Of a DNA stretch of 64,000 nucleotides, positions 7,038-53,884 are shown piece after piece. The notes below the pieces were generated by a model. The model did no database searches and had not been told where the DNA came from. It saw only the letters and a program-made list of their open reading frames with translations. Every line of letters begins with the position of its first letter. Positions within the stretch are counted from its first letter, which is position 1. The translations under genes were made by a program, and so were the position numbers. The stretch comes from an uncultured Opitutales bacterium (GTDB lineage: Bacteria; Myxococcota_A; UBA9160; SMWR01), in assembly GCA_964194865.1 (NCBI GenBank), contig CAXMOC010000141.1:8370-72369 (forward strand), given 5' to 3'.

Positions 7038-7682
7038 CTAACGGGAGAGAGGCAAGCTAGCCGCGGCAGAGTCGGCACCCCATTTGGCTAGCTCGGCGGC
7101 CGTCAGCCAGCGTGTGCCCCCGCCGGGGTAACGCGGCGCGTTGAACACGTTCTCGGAGAGTGCTCTCTGGGTCTCGTCGAACTTCGAGGTCCACACCCGG
7201 CGGGGCGTGGGCGCGGTGTAGATCGAAATTTCAAAAGCCACGCTGGCCGCTCGAGAAGAGCCGTACTTCTCGCCCCCACGTTCCCGGTAACGCGACACCT
7301 GGCCCAGCATGACCGCCGTGGCTCCAAATTTGTGCGCTGCGAGCTCGGCGGCCGCTCTGGGATCCAGGCGCGGGGCGGGTATCCCCTGACCCACAAAGGC
7401 GATCTCCAGATCGCTCGGCGCTACGACCCGAATGCCGCGTCGGGCCAGGGCTTCCGTCATAAAGCGAGCGACCAATTCGGCGGCGGCAGCCGGCGAAACT
7501 CCCTCCGAGGAGTACTTCGCCAGCGTCTCCTTGGGGTAGAAGGGCACGACTGCGACCTTGTCGAGTGTACCCGGAGGAATACGCATGGTCGTGTTCTGGA
7601 CGACTGGCGCCGGTCTGACGGCATCACAGCCGAGCAGTCCGAACGCCACAATCAGGCCGACACAGCTCGAGCTTTTCAACAT
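7038..7682 (-). CDS. Putative lipoprotein, possibly LpoB/CsgG/GNA1162-like fold
   Basis: ATG at 7682 overlaps the hisH end; signal MLKSSSCVGLIVAFGLLG-C with lipobox; KVAVVPF...AVMLGQVSRYRER...VWTS pattern. Confidence 0.65.
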   Translation of the reverse strand: MLKSSSCVGLIVAFGLLGCDAVRPAPVVQNTTMRIPPGTLDKVAVVPFYPKETLAKYSSEGVSPAAAAELVARFMTEALARRGIRVVAPSDLEIAFVGQGIPAPRLDPRAAAELAAHKFGATAVMLGQVSRYRERGGEKYGSSRAASVAFEISIYTAPTPRRVWTSKFDETQRALSENVFNAPRYPGGGTRWLTAAELAKWGADSAAASLPLSR

Positions 7683-46156: not shown

Positions 46157-46817
46157 TCTTGAGGCCCTCGGTCGCCGACGAGCGCGTCATCTTGAAGGTT
46201 CCATGCCGGCTGCCATCGCGCTCGAACGATCCGCTCATGCTGCCATCTTCGGACCCGATCACCGTCGTGGTATAGAGCGTCACCCCGTCGAGGTCTTCCG
46301 AGCGCTCGGAGCCGAGCACGTCTTCCCGCCGGAAGATCGGCCCCGTGTCGCCGGAGTCGATGTTCCAATGCTCGACGTAGCTGATCACCGAAGCCGAGGC
46401 GGCCGTATTCCTCGAGAACGACGCCCAGTTGCCATCCGAGTTCTTCAGCGTCTTGGATTTCATTCCCCGTTCGTTGACGGCGAGGCCATCCTTGATGTCT
46501 GCGAGCTGGCTCGGGCTGGGCTCCCAGAACTCCAGGACGCGGGAGCTGCGGCCAAGGGATCGATCGAAGCGGCCCGACTGGTCGTCGAAGACGACGATGG
46601 GGTAATCGGTCCAGCGCAGGCGGCTGCCCGTCTTCTCGAACACCCAGACCCGATCCTCCCAACGCTCGCGCTCGGGATGGGGTGCGTTGTCGTCCTTGTA
46701 ATGGACCAGTACGTGCCAGGTGCCCGCGAGGTCCGGCGAATCGCCTGAAACTGCCACTGGAGCAAACAGCGCGCTCGCCGCCAGCAGGCCCAGGGTGACG
46801 AGAAGTCGGGCGCTCAA
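46080..46817 (-). CDS. Hypothetical exported protein
   Basis: TTG overlapping the thyX TGA with GAGGTGGAG SD; signal peptide MSARLLVTLGLLAASALFAPVAVSG; beta-rich body. Confidence 0.7.
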   Translation of the reverse strand: MSARLLVTLGLLAASALFAPVAVSGDSPDLAGTWHVLVHYKDDNAPHPERERWEDRVWVFEKTGSRLRWTDYPIVVFDDQSGRFDRSLGRSSRVLEFWEPSPSQLADIKDGLAVNERGMKSKTLKNSDGNWASFSRNTAASASVISYVEHWNIDSGDTGPIFRREDVLGSERSEDLDGVTLYTTTVIGSEDGSMSGSFERDGSRHGTFKMTRSSATEGLKSDGKTPNEKANDRGRRALEALGYVD

Positions 46818-48349
46818 ATGGTTCGCTCCACCTCGGGAAAGGTTCTCCATACCGTTACTCCACAGAAGTGCGATCCCTCGGTGCAGCGCGGGCGGACGAC
46901 TCCGGTGCGCACGAAGCACGGTGGACCGACGTGTCGGATCAGACTTGGGTGAACGGCGCCCACTTGCTCGATCTCGTCCATTGAAGCGTTCCAGATCTCG
47001 CGTTGCGCGTTGAGGCAGGTTCGCATCGTCCACTTATGGATCAAGTCGAGCAAGCTGCCAGACTCGACGAAGCGAATCGCCACGGCGTTGGGAAGTGCGT
47101 AGAGCGCCAGCTCGGGCTCGACACCTGCGCCCAGCAGCTGTTCGCGCGCGTGCCAGGCCGCGCCGACGGCCTCGGTGAACAGGGCGTGGCAGCCGGGATC
47201 GTCGCGAATCAGCTCCGGCTCGACGACGTCCACCGTCGCCGGAACCGTTCGCGAAAGCAGCGGGCGGGAGCCGGGCACGGTGCGGTGGCGTTGATCCTGG
47301 GAATCCGCGGTGTGTGAGAGCTTCTTTCTGAAGGTGTAGTGCGCGTGGGTCAGGGCGCGCATGATGGGCGCGTGGGTCGAAATGTTCAGCGTATCGACCC
47401 GATAGGAGTTCTGAGACGGATCGAGCACCAGCTCCAGCGCGGCGTCATCCTCCAGCTCATAACGACCCAGCACGTGGCGAACCGCGTCGGCGACCACTTC
47501 CGGACCCCGGGCGCTGTAGTCGATCAGGCGGGAGCAGCGACCGTCGAGAAATTTGTCGAAGGACTCTGTGCCGGCGGGGTCGCCAACTCCGGGCTCCGCG
47601 AGTTGCCGCTCGACCACCTCGTCCGCTTCTCGCGCCGGCTCGCCGACGCGAGCGAAGAAGTCGGGATCGATGCGTTCGACCTCGGCAACCATCCGCCCCA
47701 CCACGTCGGCTGCCTCGCGCGGAACGTCGCTGGCCGACACCATCCGGCGCAGGCGGTGGAGCACGATCCCCGAGACGGTGTAGACCATCGCCGTGTGGCA
47801 GGCGATCGGGATCACGTAGCGAGCAGTCTCGATCGCGCGCTTCTCCGCTTCACGCGCGATGCTCTTGCCAAAGGCAGTCGATTTGCGCGCCGACAGACGC
47901 CACAGGTCCGAGAGGATTCGATACGTCAAGGGTGTCAGACGTTCGGTCAGCTCACGGTAGGCTTGCCAGGAACGCTCGATGGAAGCCTCGAGTATCTCGC
48001 GCGCCCGACCCTCGAGCTTGGGGGGAACGTGTGCGGTCACCTCGTCGAGCTTCACGTAGCGTTGGCTCTGCTGCTCCGTGTTGTAGAACGGAAATCCATG
48101 CAGAAACGACCACACGAGCTGGCGGGAGATACCCGAGAGTGCAAACTCGAATGTGGCGTGCTGATACACCGTGTGGTGACCACCGTCGTAAGTCAGAGGA
48201 CCGATGCTTTGACGTTGGCGCTCGGTGATTTCTTCGGGGTCGATGACCCTGGACGAGTAACAGGTGCGCGCCGCCGAGATGGCGTCGTCGTAGGGACGAT
48301 CGAACCAGCTGCGCAGGCGGACATCCGGTCCGCGATCGATGATTGCCAC
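46814..48349 (-). CDS. thyX: FAD-dependent thymidylate synthase with two tandem ThyX domains
   Basis: AARTCYS, GHHTVYQH...F...GISR, EQQSQRY, ARYVIP; second repeat LTHAHYTF, QRHR, YALPNA, RTCLNAQREI. Confidence 0.85.
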   Translation of the reverse strand: MAIIDRGPDVRLRSWFDRPYDDAISAARTCYSSRVIDPEEITERQRQSIGPLTYDGGHHTVYQHATFEFALSGISRQLVWSFLHGFPFYNTEQQSQRYVKLDEVTAHVPPKLEGRAREILEASIERSWQAYRELTERLTPLTYRILSDLWRLSARKSTAFGKSIAREAEKRAIETARYVIPIACHTAMVYTVSGIVLHRLRRMVSASDVPREAADVVGRMVAEVERIDPDFFARVGEPAREADEVVERQLAEPGVGDPAGTESFDKFLDGRCSRLIDYSARGPEVVADAVRHVLGRYELEDDAALELVLDPSQNSYRVDTLNISTHAPIMRALTHAHYTFRKKLSHTADSQDQRHRTVPGSRPLLSRTVPATVDVVEPELIRDDPGCHALFTEAVGAAWHAREQLLGAGVEPELALYALPNAVAIRFVESGSLLDLIHKWTMRTCLNAQREIWNASMDEIEQVGAVHPSLIRHVGPPCFVRTGVVRPRCTEGSHFCGVTVWRTFPEVERTI

Positions 48350-48400: not shown

Positions 48401-48437
48401 TTTCCAAAGATGGGAAATTGTTTTCCCAATCTGAAAG
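48401..48437. promoter_or_regulatory. Tandem imperfect palindromes TTTCC-N7-GGAAA and TTTTC-N7-GAAAG (candidate upstream activator sites)
   Basis: AT-rich sites 20 bp apart, ~110-150 bp upstream of a sigma54 promoter. Confidence 0.5.
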
Positions 48438-48547: not shown

Positions 48548-48562
48548 TGGCACGGCGCTTGC
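48548..48562 (+). promoter_or_regulatory. sigma54 (-24/-12) promoter
   Basis: TGGCACG-GCGC-TTGC matches the TGGCACG-N4-TTGC consensus; intergenic, upstream of 48688. Confidence 0.8.
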
Positions 48563-48687
48563 CGTGAGGAGCGCGGGGGGTTGCATCGGCGGGGCACATC
48601 CGCACGCGGGCCGCGAAGCGGCGACTCGGCCTCCCCAGAGAGGCACCGGGAGCGCCACCGCTCAACAGGGAGCCGAGCAGGCGTTCG

Positions 48688-50607
48688 ATGATCACACTCT
48701 GGATCGTCCACCGCGATTCGCGAATGCGCTCGGCACTGGCCCGGGTAGCGGCAGCCCCCGAGAGCGCAATCTCGGGCCCTCCGGGGGATCCGCTGTTTCT
48801 GACGGCGCCCGCGGCGGACGTCGTGGTGTTGGGCCTGGCCGGCGATCTCGAGGCCGAGCTGGAGTTCGCACACCAGACCGCCTCCCGCCTGCGCGACGCC
48901 CGCTGGATCCTCGTGCCCGAGCGCCGCGACTCGGCGGCCGTGCAAGCGCTCTTCGACTCCATCGACGCGACGATCCTGAGCTATCCGCCCGACGCACGCA
49001 CGCTGCGCGCAGAGATCCACGCCACGGACCTGCGCGGTACCGGCGGACGCCTGGCCCTCTCGGAGCGGCCGTCGCGCGATCTACTCGCCGAGCGCTTCGC
49101 CCGTTGGTTCGCGGACCTCGAGCTACCCGAGTTAATGCGCGCCCTCGACCCGCGTCTGTGGGACGTGCCGTTGTTGATTGCCGGCGAAACGGGAACCGGG
49201 CGCGGCTTGATGGCCCAGTACGTTCACGTCTTCGGGCCCGGGGCAGCGGGCGAGCTCGCGCACGTCGTCTGCCAAGCCGGGATGTCGGCCGCCGACCTGG
49301 ATCGGGCGCTGAGCGAGGCAGCTCGAGAGGCAACAGCAGCGCGTACGGTCTGGTTGGAGGACGTCGATTCGCTTCCCCTCGCCAGCCAGCGGCGACTGGC
49401 GCGCTGGCTCGAGCTGGGCCCGCCGGCCGGAATGCGGCGGACGCGGATCGGACGCTGGATCGGAACGATTTCAGACGCCCCGGAGTTGGGCCCGCAAGGC
49501 AGCCTGGACCCGGGTCTGCGCGATCGCCTGAGCGGAATCTCTCTGCGAATCCCGCCGCTGCGCCAGCGCACCCAGCTGATCGCCCCGCTCGCCAACCAGA
49601 CCGCGCTGGCCTGGTGTAGCGCCCACCGAGAGCTACCGCGCCGCTTTGGAGAAGACGCGATCACGGTGCTCGAGGAGTATCCCTGGCCCGGCAACCTGCA
49701 AGAGTTCGAGGCGGTCGTGCTGCAGACGCTCGTCGCAGGCTCGGCCGACCCGATTCGCGCCGACGATCTTCAGTACGACGGGACGGCCTTCGCGCCCCTC
49801 GACGCCAACGCATTCGGCGTGTTGATCGACTCGGACGAGGCTGCGGCCAGCAATCCGGCGGCGGTACCCGCAACGGCGGTCGAACGCAGCGCAGATGCCG
49901 CGCAACCGGCCGAGACCGGCCGGCCCAAAGCCGCGCCCACGACAGCGCCGCTCCGGGACAGCCCCCTGCAGCCGTTGGCAGCCGCGATCGCTCACGAGGT
50001 GCGCAACCCACTTTCGACGATCCGGACCTTCGCCGAGCTGCTACCCGAACGCTACGACGATCCCGAATTCCGCTCTCGGTTCAGTGAGCTGGTCGGGCAG
50101 GATGCTCTGCGGATCGAATCCGTCGTGGCCCGACTGGTGGAGCTGGCAGCGCTCGGCCGCGAACCGCCGAGCCCCGTGGACATCTCGGCTCTGCTGGACG
50201 AGCTGCTCGACACGCATCGGGAGCTCATCCACAGCCGTGGCCTGCTGGTTCTCAGGGAGCTCGACGCGCAGCCCCCCCACGCCTTGGGCGACGCCGGACA
50301 GTTGGGCTTCGCGCTCGAGTCCTTGCTGGCCAGATCGCTGCGGCTCGCGCCGGAGGGGGGCGAGGTCTACATCGCTTCTCGGCATCACCGCACGGGCTTG
50401 CGCGGCGGACCGGCGATCCGGGTCCTGGTTCGCTTCGGTGAGCGAGGCCAGCTGGCGTCACGGCCGCGCGTAGCTGGTACCTCGGCGGCGGAGAACGCGA
50501 TGGAGTTCGCGATCGCTCAGGCGATCATTCGCGCCCAGGGCGGGAGCTTCGCGATCGACGCGGGGGAAGGGGGCGAGACGGTGGTACTGCTAGACATCCC
50601 CGCTTGA
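48688..50607 (+). CDS. Chimeric signalling protein: pseudo-receiver, degenerate sigma54-type AAA+, HisKA, degenerate HATPase
   Basis: GETGTGR, WLEDVD, IPPLRQR, YPWPGNLQE (AAA+); AHEVRNPL (H-box); N/G boxes eroded. Confidence 0.8.
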   Translation: MITLWIVHRDSRMRSALARVAAAPESAISGPPGDPLFLTAPAADVVVLGLAGDLEAELEFAHQTASRLRDARWILVPERRDSAAVQALFDSIDATILSYPPDARTLRAEIHATDLRGTGGRLALSERPSRDLLAERFARWFADLELPELMRALDPRLWDVPLLIAGETGTGRGLMAQYVHVFGPGAAGELAHVVCQAGMSAADLDRALSEAAREATAARTVWLEDVDSLPLASQRRLARWLELGPPAGMRRTRIGRWIGTISDAPELGPQGSLDPGLRDRLSGISLRIPPLRQRTQLIAPLANQTALAWCSAHRELPRRFGEDAITVLEEYPWPGNLQEFEAVVLQTLVAGSADPIRADDLQYDGTAFAPLDANAFGVLIDSDEAAASNPAAVPATAVERSADAAQPAETGRPKAAPTTAPLRDSPLQPLAAAIAHEVRNPLSTIRTFAELLPERYDDPEFRSRFSELVGQDALRIESVVARLVELAALGREPPSPVDISALLDELLDTHRELIHSRGLLVLRELDAQPPHALGDAGQLGFALESLLARSLRLAPEGGEVYIASRHHRTGLRGGPAIRVLVRFGERGQLASRPRVAGTSAAENAMEFAIAQAIIRAQGGSFAIDAGEGGETVVLLDIPA

Positions 50608-50632
50608 GCTCCGTCTGATAGTCTCCCGGCCA

Positions 50633-52009
50633 ATGGCCCGCCTGCTGGTGGTGGACGACGAGCCGGGCGTGCGCGAATCGCTGCGCATGCTCTTCAAGGA
50701 CGATTGCGAAGTCGTCACCGCCGCCTCGGTGGACGAGGCGACGCAGCTTCTCGCCAGCTCGCAGCCCGATCTGATGCTGCTGGATCTAGTGATGCCAGGC
50801 CGTGGCGGATTGGATCTCCTCGCCGACGTCTCCGAGCTGCTCGATCCCCCGCTGGTGGTGGTGCTGACGGCCACCCGGACGGTGGCCACCGCGGTGGAGG
50901 CCATGAAACGGGGCGCGGTCGATTACGTCACCAAGCCCTTCGAGGTGGAGGCACTGCGCCTCAAGGTTCGACAGCTGCTGGAACGGCGAGCACTCGAGCG
51001 CGAAGTCATCCAGCTGCGGGCCCAGGTGGACGACCGCGAGCGGCTGGGCGGGCTGGTCGGCCGCAGTCCACCGATGCAGCAGCTGTTTCACAAGATTCGT
51101 CGGGTCGCCAGCTCCAAGGCCACCGTCTTGCTCCGCGGCGAGAGCGGGAGCGGCAAGGAGCTGGCCGCCCGGGCCATCCACGACCTTGGCGACCGCGCCG
51201 ACGAAGCCTATGTGGCGGTCAATTGTGCTGCGATTCCCGACAACCTGATCGAGAGCGAGCTGTTCGGCCACGAGCGCGGAGCGTTCACGGATGCACGCGA
51301 GCGCAGGATCGGAAAGTTCGAGGCGGCCTCCGGCGGGACGCTTTTTCTCGACGAGGTCGGCGAGTTGGCGGTCTCCGTCCAGGCCAAGCTGCTGCGTGCC
51401 CTTCAAGAGCTGCAGATCGAGCGGCTGGGAGGATCCGCTCCGATCCAGGTGGATGTGCGCGTAATCGCCGCGACGAATCGCGATCTCGAGAGCGACGTAT
51501 CGAACGGCCGCTTTCGCTCCGACCTCTTCTACCGCATCAACGTGGTCCCGATCGAGCTGCCCTCCCTCGCTGCTAGGCGCGAAGACATCGCGCGGCTGGC
51601 GGACCATTTCCTGGCCCAAGCGCGCTCCCAGGCCAACCGCGGCCCCAGCAGCGTCTCTCGCGAGGCGATCACCCTGCTGGAGCGCTACTCCTGGCCCGGC
51701 AACGTCCGCGAGCTGGAGAACGCCATCGAGCACGGCGTCGCCCTCGCGGAGGGCGAGGTACTCGGCATCGACGACCTGCCTCCCGCAATCGCTCGCGCGG
51801 GAGCCGTAGAGACCCTGCGCGACGCGGTTCGGGCGGGCAGCCTGGGCTTCGAGGAGGCGGTGGGCAACTTCGAGCGCCAGCTGATCGTGGAGACCCTCGA
51901 ACGCTGCGACTGGAACCAAACCCGCGCGGCCGAGCAGCTGCAAACCACTCGGCGCGCCTTGAAGCTCAAAATGGACCGCTACAGCCTCGGTAAGCCCGGC
52001 GAAGACTAG
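50633..52009 (+). CDS. NtrC-family sigma54-dependent response regulator
   Basis: REC LVVDDE...[44 protein letters not shown], Fis-type HTH NQTRAA. Confidence 0.95.
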
Positions 52010-52040
52010 ACCCCGTCTGAGCGCCGTCCGCCCGAGCTGG

Positions 52041-52124
52041 GTGTTCTCATTCGAACACTAAAATTTATCTAACTAAATCAAACAAATAGATCGATAATTG
52101 CGTATCGACGTTCCATTCGGAACG
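52041..52124. promoter_or_regulatory. Palindromic candidate enhancer sites flanking an AT-rich tract
   Basis: GTGTTC-N6-GAACAC (52041-52058), TCGATA-N6-TATCGA (52091-52108), CGTTC-N6-GAACG (52109-52124). Confidence 0.55.
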
Positions 52125-52182
52125 AATCTGCATCGCTGCCGGTCCGTCACCAGAGTCAGCGCCTTCTCTGATTCTAAAGCAA

Positions 52183-52195
52183 TTTCAAGTGGTTA
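52183..52195 (+). promoter_or_regulatory. IHF-like binding site
   Basis: TTTCAAGTGGTTA, one mismatch to WATCAA-N4-TTR, between the enhancer sites and the sigma54 promoter. Confidence 0.45.
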
Positions 52196-52222
52196 CACGC
52201 CTGAGCCAGCTCCGGGCGGAGC

Positions 52223-52237
52223 TGGCACGTCACTTGC
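52223..52237 (+). promoter_or_regulatory. sigma54 (-24/-12) promoter
   Basis: TGGCACG-TCAC-TTGC matches consensus, ~45 nt upstream of the HD-GYP GTG. Confidence 0.82.
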
Positions 52238-52280
52238 GATGACAGGGCGGCTGAAGGCCGACGGATTCGGGGGGGATCCA

Positions 52281-53483
52281 GTGAGTTACGGAGAAACCAA
52301 GATCTTGATCGTGGACGACGAGCAGGGGCCGCGCGACTCGCTGCGGATGATCCTCTCCCCGGAGCATCACGTACTCCAGGCGAGCAGCGGAATCGAGGCC
52401 ATCGAGTGCTTGAGACGCGAGCCGGTAGATCTGATGACATTGGATCTGCACATGCCCGGAATGAACGGCCAGCAGCTGCTGCGGACCGTGCGAAACGAGT
52501 TCCCCCAGGTCGAGATCGTCATCATCACCGGCTGTGGATCGGTGGAGAGCGCCGCCGAAGGCATTCGATTCGGCGTCTGTGACTATCTCCAGAAGCCCTT
52601 CGACGTGGTCCAGGTCAGCGCGGCCGTCGAGCGTGCGCTCGCCCGCCAGCGGGCGCGGGGGCGCCTGACCTCCTTCCTGGAACAGCTCGGTGAGGCGGTG
52701 GGCCGCGAACGCGACGCCTTGGCGATTCTCGACGACGTTCATCGCAGCGGCAAGGTTCGCGCGCGGGTCAGCGGGCTGTTCGAGGAGTGCGGCGGGCGCG
52801 CGGAGCTGTCGACCGGGGCGCTCGATCGTCCCCGCACCAGCGAGTTTCTCGAAGTGCTGGCAGAGACCATCGAGATCAAGGATCGCTACATGCGCGGGCA
52901 CGCTCGGCGGGTGGCGTTCTACGCCAGCCTGATGGCCGAGCGCTTGTCGCTCGCCTCCGAGGAGCTCGAATCCGTCCGCTTCGCGGCGTTTCTTCACGAC
53001 CTGGGCAAGGTGGGTGTTCCGACGGACCTGCTGCTGCGAGCTGGAGCGCTCGACCCGAGCGAGCGCAGCCTGGTGGAGCAACATCCCGAGATCGGCCAAC
53101 GGCTGCTCGAGCCCCTCGCCATTCCCTCGGCGATTTCGTCGGCGGTCCGACACCACCACGAGTGGTGGGACGGAACCGGTTATCCGGATGGACTCTCGGG
53201 CGAGAAGATCCCCCTGGCCGCGCGGATCATCGGCGTGGTCGACGCCTTCGACGCCATGAGCTCGGACCGGCCTTATCGCCGGGCGCTGGATCGCGCGCTG
53301 GTCAGCGACGAGCTGCGGCGTTTCAGCGGCATCCAGTTCGATCCTGTCATCGCGAAGGAGTTTCTCAGCGTGCTCGAATCGGGCGCGTGTGACGTCGATC
53401 CCGAAACCGTGGCGGACGCAGTCGCAGATGTGCGCAGCCCCGCCCCCTCGAACCGCCCCGCGGCGGGCATAGGAGTTGGATGA
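52281..53483 (+). CDS. Response regulator with HD-GYP phosphodiesterase domain
   Basis: REC ILIVDDE...LDLHMP...QKPF; GHARRV, HDLGK, HHEWWDGTGYPDGL, DAFDAM, RPYR; GTG start downstream of the promoter. Confidence 0.93.
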   Translation: MSYGETKILIVDDEQGPRDSLRMILSPEHHVLQASSGIEAIECLRREPVDLMTLDLHMPGMNGQQLLRTVRNEFPQVEIVIITGCGSVESAAEGIRFGVCDYLQKPFDVVQVSAAVERALARQRARGRLTSFLEQLGEAVGRERDALAILDDVHRSGKVRARVSGLFEECGGRAELSTGALDRPRTSEFLEVLAETIEIKDRYMRGHARRVAFYASLMAERLSLASEELESVRFAAFLHDLGKVGVPTDLLLRAGALDPSERSLVEQHPEIGQRLLEPLAIPSAISSAVRHHHEWWDGTGYPDGLSGEKIPLAARIIGVVDAFDAMSSDRPYRRALDRALVSDELRRFSGIQFDPVIAKEFLSVLESGACDVDPETVADAVADVRSPAPSNRPAAGIGVG

Positions 53484-53884
53484 TGGCTAGCGCGTTGAAG
53501 GTCGATTCGAATCACAGGGGACTCACTGAGCCGCGCCTGGCCCCGGCATTCTCGACGATCCGCCGAGAGCCCCGGACCAACGAGGTGCGAAGCGCCGAGT
53601 ACACGCCCTTCCCGCGAGTCTCCAGCGACCAGAATCCCCGACTGGGATTTACCCGCGACATATCCGCCTTGGGGATGTGTCTGGGCGTCGACAGGCCCGA
53701 GCCGATCGGCTCGCTGCTGCGCGTCGAGGTTCGTCGGATCGATGGGGCATCGATGGGAGCGACCGTCGGCCGCGTGGTGTGGTGCTCGTCCGCCCATGCC
53801 GGCCGCTTCTGGCTGGGGCTCGACCTGATGTGCGAGATCAACGCCCCGCGCATCGGCGTCCGGGCATCCGCCAGCGAGACCTAG
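53480..53884 (+). CDS. PilZ domain protein
   Basis: RxxxR (RREPR) and DxSxxG (DISALG) motifs, GRVVW...GL; overlaps the HD-GYP stop. Confidence 0.8.
   Translation: MMASALKVDSNHRGLTEPRLAPAFSTIRREPRTNEVRSAEYTPFPRVSSDQNPRLGFTRDISALGMCLGVDRPEPIGSLLRVEVRRIDGASMGATVGRVVWCSSAHAGRFWLGLDLMCEINAPRIGVRASASET

Follow-up and report, generated by a model that had tools for sequence, protein, structure and literature searches.

The window analysed here, a stretch of 64,000 nucleotides of contig CAXMOC010000141.1 from an uncultured bacterium, contains a cassette of four genes flanked by a divergent thyX on one side and by tatB-tatC on the other (Table 1). The first gene encodes a chimeric pseudo-enzyme, hereafter the chimera, and it is followed by genes for an NtrC-type activator, a REC-HD-GYP phosphodiesterase and a stand-alone PilZ protein. 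The original prediction had placed a consensus sigma54 site before each of two gene pairs, and this held up: the window has exactly two copies of TGGCAC-N5-TTGC, where 100 shuffles give an expectation of 0.10, with P1 heading the chimera and NtrC genes and P2 heading the phosphodiesterase and PilZ genes. The genome (4.45 Mb, 88% complete) encodes RpoN and contains 19 sites with the consensus sigma54 spacing, compared with 4-8 for each of nine other spacings.

The assignment of the P1 unit to a chimeric pseudo-enzyme and an NtrC-type activator was borne out by Pfam searches and motif tallies, as was that of the P2 unit to a REC-HD-GYP protein with intact motifs and an overlapping PilZ protein with RxxxR and DxSxxG, except that the phosphodiesterase gene most likely starts at GTG 52281, since the starts at 52098 and 52239, which would lengthen the product, fall upstream of, or 1 nucleotide behind, the -12 element of P2. 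The statement that neither an intact kinase nor a diguanylate cyclase is present is right for the cassette and wrong for the genome, in which we found 22 other HisKA kinase candidates and seven GGDEF matches above cut-off.

Table 1. Coordinates of the cassette features in the window (residue numbers refer to the chimera)
Feature	Position	Strand	Remarks
Enhancer motif A	48410..48429		palindrome TGGGAAA-N4-TTTCCCA, 138 nucleotides upstream of the P1 site
sigma54 -24/-12 site P1	48548..48562	+	exact consensus; in 33 of 37 loci with upstream sequence
Chimera	48688..50607	+	639 amino acids; Pfam, motif tallies (140 homologues), AlphaFold, Foldseek
Pseudo-receiver	residues 1-120
Arg-rich linker	residues 124-143
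Degenerate sigma54-type AAA+	residues 146-365		without GAFTGA or HTH
Low-confidence spacer	residues 377-424
DHp, then CA-like fold			H436-E-x-x-N440; CA-like fold without N/G1/G2 boxes
His436 codon	49993..49995	+
NtrC-type activator	50633..52009	+	458 amino acids; REC D52, Walker A/B, GAFTDA, Fis HTH (Pfam)
Enhancer motif B, distal copy	52040..52059		GTTCC-N4-GGAAC
Enhancer motif B, proximal copy	52107..52126		GTTCC-N4-GGAAC
sigma54 -24/-12 site P2	52223..52237	+	exact consensus
REC-HD-GYP phosphodiesterase	52281..53483	+	400 amino acids; Pfam HD_5 and Response_reg, RxxR substrate motif
PilZ protein	53480..53884	+	134 amino acids; RREPR (RxxxR) and DISALG (DxSxxG), Pfam PilZ

Composition and range of the chimera

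The chimera joins a receiver-like part, a sigma54-type AAA+ part and a kinase core. The Pfam scan returned matches to sigma54-AAA (PF14532) and AAA lid (PF25601), both above cut-off, and to HisKA, and the same scan gave no HATPase_c, Response_reg or HTH (HTH_8) match. An AlphaFold model with a mean predicted local distance difference test score of 87 comprises receiver-like, AAA+, DHp and CA-like parts, and Foldseek retrieved NtrX, NtrC1, VpsR and FleQ as well as HK853, RetS (6dk7) and DivL (4q20). When residues 1-150 were compared with the ESM Atlas, only receiver-type look-alikes were found (best 0.91, 160 shared features).

Every catalytic motif is gone except the H-box. Among 140 homologues, the receiver Asp is replaced by Gly in 136 and by Ala in 4, and the Walker A Lys is Arg in 123 and kept in 16. 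Walker B is variable, mostly E-D, and the arginine finger is lost. GAFTGA, the N-box and GxGLG were each found in 0 of 140, and the G1 columns contain no Asp. On the other hand, H436 is kept in 135, E437 in 134 and N440 in 131. From the established roles of the missing motifs, the chimera cannot be expected to activate sigma54, to take phosphate on its receiver or to autophosphorylate. To regard it as a decaying fusion without function would account for these losses, and is scarcely credible in view of a long reading frame conserved in 37 of 40 relatives, a C-terminal part found in 165 of the 193 genomes of the order, 15 columns invariant across the 140 sequences and a conserved promoter of its own.

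The chimera is an order-specific fusion. In a phylum-wide sample searched at E<=1e-30, 35 of 41 genomes from the order itself gave a match, compared with 0 of 6 from the rest of the class and 0 of 203 from the rest of the phylum. Its closest records are metagenome-assembled genomes labelled Myxococcota, Myxococcales or Deltaproteobacteria, with a few under other labels; the order is presumably UBA9160. A profile search of 1.8 billion representatives at E<=1e-30 gave 509 proteins, an upper bound that may include ordinary activators. The idea of intact forms in other phyla was rejected, as these 209 genomes outside the order gave none at E<=1e-30, weak long-range matches being left aside.

The synteny survey covered 92 loci, and the 62 with at least 3.2 kb downstream were counted, the other 30 being set aside. 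All four genes stand together at 27 of the 62, so a reading of the four as an obligate unit is not supported. Among the rest, the phosphodiesterase gene is absent from 9, the PilZ gene from 8 and both from 2, only the phosphodiesterase gene is kept at 6, the chimera is alone at 7, and broken or stub genes occur at 3. The earlier pairing of the phosphodiesterase with PilZ as its receptor is not supported as it stands, the two genes being lost independently of each other. The chimera persists at loci lacking both. The chimera is thus the fixed element and the other three genes are modular.

Several single loci are worth recording. In G018, G039 and G031 (L031, 7515-8174 oriented; L043, 7356-7967; L064, 7548-8198), the gene behind P2 is a receiver stub that lacks a complete HD-GYP domain, and the PilZ gene is kept. 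The chimera of L055 (G001) and the NtrC of L043 (G039) have apparent frameshifts, probably assembly errors, and G039 has a second chimera-NtrC copy on another contig. At L059 (G027:C139, at a contig end), the N-terminal half of the chimera continues in frame into the core of another kinase, whose N, G1 and F boxes are intact, and GC at third positions climbs across the joint from about 0.82 to 0.93; either the assembly is wrong here or the half has been re-fused naturally to a live kinase.

Enhancer motifs and predicted activators of P1 and P2

P2 is preceded by two tandem copies of motif B, about 185 and 118 nucleotides ahead of the sigma54 site. These copies are the two top scores for motif B in the genome, and it exceeds 6 bits at no other sigma54-like site there. 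When we scored held-out loci, that is, loci outside the matrix set, motif B attained 12 bits or more in 26 of 26 that have the cassette NtrC versus 1 of 10 without it (three of the ten, G005, G016 and G020, having been in the first set), and the P2 sigma54 site was present in 20 of 26 versus 1 of 10. As motif B is the genome's top match at P2 and decays where NtrC is not found, we suggest that the cassette NtrC likely drives P2, and P2 only, which is the best-supported step of the predicted cascade. The earlier claim that the activator induces the phosphodiesterase and PilZ genes is therefore likely to be right. A self-contained circuit, in which the cassette NtrC would drive both promoters, would agree with the adjacency of both promoters and all four genes here and at 27 of the 62 loci. 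It is highly improbable, since motif B does not exceed 7.7 bits in 33 P1 regions, motif A does not exceed 8.7 bits in 25 P2 regions, and P1 with motif A persists in genomes lacking NtrC. At L047 (G038), near 7145 (oriented), P2 and both copies of motif B are kept and the phosphodiesterase and PilZ genes are gone; P2 there aims straight at tatB-tatC, so the tat genes may be a further target.

The cassette NtrC has the features of a complete activator. In 53 orthologues, D52 and the Walker B DE are kept in all 53, and GAFTDA and GAFTGA occur in 36 and 14, respectively. Of the 193 genomes of the order, 149 gave a match to it, and whole genera gave none (0 of 7, 0 of 3 and 0 of 2). We considered whether it is the PrsR equivalog TIGR02915, and rejected this at 408.5 bits against a curated cut-off of 502.6.

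The phosphodiesterase carries the HD, HHExxDGxGYP and Rxx(K/R) motifs that serve as criteria for HD-GYP c-di-GMP phosphodiesterases, as outlined in bioRxiv 10.1101/2021.11.05.467447 and 10.1101/600031. Among 41 orthologues, HD is kept in 41, RxxR in 31, RxxQ in 0 and RTGN in 1. Cyclic GMP-AMP, which had been raised as a substrate besides cyclic di-GMP (c-di-GMP), is unlikely because the motif is RxxR instead of RxxQ/N. The loop of the enzyme reads KDRYMRGH, with Tyr/Phe four residues ahead of the first His. This column may be the place of the third-metal Glu (E185 of PmGH). The predicted active site probably binds two metals, and the reaction would hence stop at pGpG. The PilZ gene overlaps that of the phosphodiesterase by 4 nucleotides, and its product, a putative c-di-GMP receptor, shows both RxxxR (36 of 40 orthologues) and D/NxSxxG, the motifs by which c-di-GMP binding is judged.

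The enhancer before P1 is a different one. Motif A stands as a single copy about 140-150 nucleotides before P1, at a similar position in most of the 33 P1 regions from which the matrix was built. In the genome, it accompanies 7 of 41 intergenic sigma54-like sites, one of them the training site; of 75 controls with a wrong spacing it accompanies 0, and of 3000 intergenic positions picked at random, 21. Downstream of the other six sites lie a gene for a PEP-CTERM protein (a match just below the Pfam cut-off), four genes for proteins with signal-peptide-like N-termini (judged by eye) and a pair of ECF sigma genes. The last site, at G000:C104:26747-28473 (L151), has the sigma54 site and motif A before two tandem ECF sigma factor genes, which suggests a relay from sigma54 to ECF sigma factors within the motif A regulon.

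A candidate for the factor that binds motif A is an orphan activator at G000:C26:35540-36961, whose gene heads a cluster for polysaccharide export, chain length and an ATPase beside an exosortase. Binding of an activator to its own upstream region is typical of autoregulation. Motif A reaches at least 10 bits upstream of 25 of 26 orthologues of this exopolysaccharide-locus activator, often in two or three copies about 20 nucleotides apart without a sigma54 site on the same strand; genome-wide, 40 of 3873 upstream regions score as high. Based on these observations, motif A is the predicted site of this activator. Since the enhancer at P1 differs from that at P2, P1 appears to be driven from outside the cassette, so the original idea of the circuit is not supported at P1. 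As a first step, it is fairly probable that the exopolysaccharide-locus activator would bind motif A and turn on P1 together with secreted and PEP-CTERM protein genes.

Three observations weigh against this assignment. First, in 8 genomes with P1 no copy of the activator turned up, and 7 of them have motif A at 13 bits or more. Second, among genomes with the activator, motif A was found at P1 in 38 of 50, and those lacking it there include G188, G281, G327 and G386. Third, a paralogue of the activator at C26:58877 has a similar recognition helix.

Two other identities of motif A were rejected. It is kept in loci without thyX at that position and is thus not part of the divergent thyX promoter, and it differs in length and end from the published PEP-CTERM box; of 15 hits to a PEP-CTERM-like pattern, 1 exceeds 10 bits for motif A. 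The thyX gene itself (46814-48349, minus strand) encodes 511 amino acids with two Thy1 stretches, is divergent from P1 and adjoins the chimera gene in most relatives. Beside the exopolysaccharide cluster, G000:C26:17373-23248 (L158) contains a CRP-family gene, a PAS kinase, an activator and a TPR protein above the PrsT cut-off; the group resembles PrsK/R/T and is separate from the motif A activator.

His436, the orphan kinase and the role of the chimera

When we compared the chimera sequences row by row, His436 was kept in 64 of 64 rows with the cassette NtrC and lost in 14 of 25 (present in 11) without it, the remaining rows of the 92 being two gaps and one set aside as unknown. The 64 include two relabelled rows with the gene cut at the locus, one second-frame reading, one second copy and the G027 row, in which another kinase makes up the C-terminal half. 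His and the adjacent acid are both intact in 58 of 63 rows with NtrC versus 3 of 25 without it. In a quick tree of chimera residues 1-370, from which 3 of the 92 rows were dropped for gaps, the losses of His436 map to eight branches, of which six or more are clearly separate. His436 is also lost in three genomes that keep the REC-HD-GYP protein (G016, G286 and G292), so the phosphodiesterase receiver does not explain its retention. These patterns make a well-supported case for a link between the chimera and NtrC, and the earlier suggestion that the chimera routes or removes phosphate fits the way in which His436 tracks NtrC. In genus g40 (L226-L228, L244-L246), the DHp region is wholly degenerate and motif A scores low at P1, and the N-terminal half is kept, as is the sigma54 site where upstream sequence exists.

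The phosphate itself would likely come from an orphan kinase encoded outside the cassette, at G000:C83. Its DHp domain is the best match to that of the chimera in the genome (69.2 bits versus 48.1 for the next; profile E 4e-25). The copy at C83 begins at the start of its contig. In relatives, the protein has about 400 amino acids, matches GAF weakly and keeps its ATP domain intact, and the gene often found beside it presumably encodes a penicillin-binding protein, a label based on motifs. Over the 193 genomes, kinase and NtrC are both found in 129, NtrC only in 20, the kinase only in 5 and neither in 39. A profile search of 57 genomes recovered the kinase, whole or shortened, in 8 of the 20 NtrC-only genomes and in G381; hits in G004, G016 and G310 were rejected as another kinase. 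The phosphodiesterase receiver is the second-best match to the NtrC receiver profile (34.7 versus 19.0 bits), and these two receivers share more helix-1 residues than any other receiver, so one kinase may serve both. There is thus good reason to expect, as a second step, that this cytoplasmic kinase would phosphorylate NtrC, and probably the phosphodiesterase receiver also. As a third step, phosphorylated NtrC would very probably bind the tandem motif B and turn on the phosphodiesterase and PilZ genes, so that c-di-GMP would fall after a delay.

We tentatively propose that the chimera acts as a His-dependent brake on the neighbouring NtrC in this predicted two-step sigma54 cascade. As a fourth step, its DHp domain would dock onto the NtrC receiver, strip its phosphate and set a threshold; the link between the two proteins is likely, and the direction of phosphate flow is on balance towards removal. 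We favour the brake for two reasons. First, the orphan kinase is live and its docking residues match, so nothing calls for a relay through the chimera. Second, the H+4 Asn, the phosphatase residue, is kept in 61 of 63 rows with NtrC, and the Glu needed only by kinases is replaced by Ala, Gln or Asp in 7 of 63, which matches the phosphatase-only forms of CrdS, in which these same replacements leave a kinase-dead and phosphatase-active protein according to PMC3510030; RetS is a further precedent.

The same data have to be weighed for a relay of the co-kinase or ChpT type, in which the orphan kinase would phosphorylate His436 in a heterodimer, the chimera would pass the phosphate to NtrC and the dead half would serve as a sensor. 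The very similar DHp domains of the chimera and the orphan kinase, a gene order like that of a normal kinase-regulator operon and the decay of the kinase-side His and acid where NtrC and the kinase are missing (the 58 of 63 versus 3 of 25 rows above) all speak for it. However, the orphan kinase, with its intact CA domain and similar docking residues, does not require a relay, the Glu is replaced in the 7 NtrC-keeping rows, G010, G023 and G024 retain His436 with no orphan kinase found in them, and the chimera has no match to PF10090 (HPTransfase) at E up to 0.1. We regard the relay as unlikely. It keeps its place beside the brake, since His and Glu are the first to decay and genera g6 and g17 retain Asn.

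Several points count against the brake. His and Glu decay first in the chimera, which contrasts with the needs of the CrdS phosphatase, whose activity depends little on His in the account of PMC3510030. Asn is kept in all 9 rows of g6 and g17, which lack NtrC, and this fits a phosphate carrier better than a pure phosphatase. In G381 and G382, His436 and the kinase are kept and NtrC was not found, as the relay would have it; since the losses of NtrC and of the kinase mostly coincide, the partner of His436 cannot be separated. In a tree of kinase cores, the chimera and the orphan kinase do not come out as sisters. In addition, "without NtrC" stands for one 89-residue query in incomplete genomes. 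All steps of the cascade are comparative: from motifs, conservation and co-loss patterns observed in the genomes, we infer who binds and phosphorylates whom.

Where the DHp domain decays, the N-terminal half is still conserved, which suggests a second function. A reversal of the DivL type would assign the DHp domain to sensing the phosphorylation of the NtrC receiver and the dead receiver-AAA+ half to acting as an anti- or co-activator subunit of another sigma54 activator. It would account for this conservation, and it has parallels in DivL orthologues, which often lose DHp-CA where DivK is missing, as described in PMC4211667, and in the hetero-oligomeric activators HrpR/HrpS, FleQ/FleT and VnfA1/VnfA3 outlined in PMC9542535. 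Nevertheless, we hold it to be quite unlikely, since DivL needs no phosphorylatable His (PMC4211667) whereas His436 is invariant with NtrC, and since no partner is singled out: against the dead AAA+ profile, the genome's twelve best activators all score in the range of 88-113 bits.

Alternatively, the dead half could be a c-di-GMP receptor like FleQ or VpsR, tuning the DHp domain and feeding back on the phosphodiesterase. Near-invariant Arg residues of the linker and lid (of 140: R127 in 139, R130 in 138, R136 in 138, R139 in 134, R318 in 136) fall in the c-di-GMP-binding region of FleQ as given in PMC10723142, and the downstream genes encode c-di-GMP proteins. When the FleQ residues were mapped by hand, R144 corresponded to F137, R185 to position 177 (Gln in the window protein), E330 to C310 and R334 to Gly/Arg 314, and the chimera outlasts the loss of the phosphodiesterase and PilZ genes at the locus; we therefore consider a receptor improbable.

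Because the FleQ c-di-GMP residues are out of register, binding of another activator is our preferred guess for the N-terminal half. As a fifth step, this half would have a job that outlasts the loss of NtrC, most likely as partner of another activator, which we regard as doubtful. Somewhat less probable still is the specific form in which this part with three dead modules couples two sigma54 activators, exchanging phosphate with the downstream one, which a paralogous live kinase would serve as well, and joining the ring of the upstream exopolysaccharide activator as a subunit. A complex prediction of chimera residues 1-368 with residues 1-388 of that activator scored 0.00, its controls not having been folded, and was used neither way. 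Three public runs labelled as RNA consisted of contigs only and shared 0.07-0.20 of words, mainly over conserved motifs of activators from other organisms, and so give no evidence on expression.

Meaning and comparison with known systems

The predicted cascade extends to two loci beyond the cassette, and repeated gene losses reveal which chimera residue serves which partner. An uncultured lineage thereby offers a small system for reconstitution, built from five soluble proteins plus two short DNA sites. From it one would learn in what way the threshold of an orphan kinase-regulator pair is set by a dead paralogue, and by what wiring a matrix regulon connects to c-di-GMP turnover. If the coupling of the two activators were true, the order as a whole would possess a built-in timer that ends matrix production via an induced c-di-GMP phosphodiesterase.

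Known pseudo-histidine kinases are few, namely RetS, DivL and ChpT, and here a fusion marks one order. A literature search that left most subscription journals outside found no pseudo-histidine kinase fused to a dead sigma54 activator module, and the chimera is apparently an undescribed, order-wide pseudo-enzyme fusion. ChpT shares with it a DHp domain with His and a CA-like fold. The CA domain of ChpT is degenerate and unable to bind ATP. ChpT stands alone and is fed by the receiver of a hybrid kinase, whereas the chimera has a 420-residue N-terminal module and lacks the PF10090 match. RetS of Pseudomonas aeruginosa, presented in PMC5992135 as a transmitter phosphatase, likewise combines a degenerate HATPase with a retained HExxT/N H-box (HExxT in RetS itself) and acts against the pathway of a partner kinase, as we propose by analogy for the chimera. 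However, RetS senses at the membrane and has two receivers that can be phosphorylated, whereas the chimera has no membrane segment predicted in the model, a single receiver without Asp and so no sink of its own, and a dead sigma54 AAA+ as its N-terminal half. DivL of Caulobacter crescentus is a pseudo-histidine kinase whose kinase-like part also decays without its response regulator, in the description of PMC4211667, but its His position is taken by Tyr and it contains PAS domains, and the chimera keeps His wherever NtrC is found.

For the N-terminal half, HrpR/HrpS, FleQ/FleT and VnfA1/VnfA3 are examples, as summarised in PMC9542535, of an AAA+ protein acting via another activator, a possible role here. 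These are pairs of activators, whereas the chimera is without GAFTGA, Walker A Lys, arginine finger and HTH and is fused to a kinase core. The PrsK/PrsR/PrsT system, as outlined in PMC1569441, likewise has a sigma54 site and an enhancer before genes for PEP-CTERM or exported proteins and an activator near exopolysaccharide and exosortase genes. It differs in its PEP-CTERM box, 17 nucleotides ending in TTTACA in contrast to the 18-nucleotide motif A, and in that the candidate motif A activator has no adjacent kinase. From the known REC-HD-GYP c-di-GMP phosphodiesterases, as far as they are characterised in the two preprints cited above, the cassette enzyme shows no difference of kind, with the metal-binding motifs, GYP and RxxR all present. 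Each part of the system thus works like a known kind, and it is the combination that is new.

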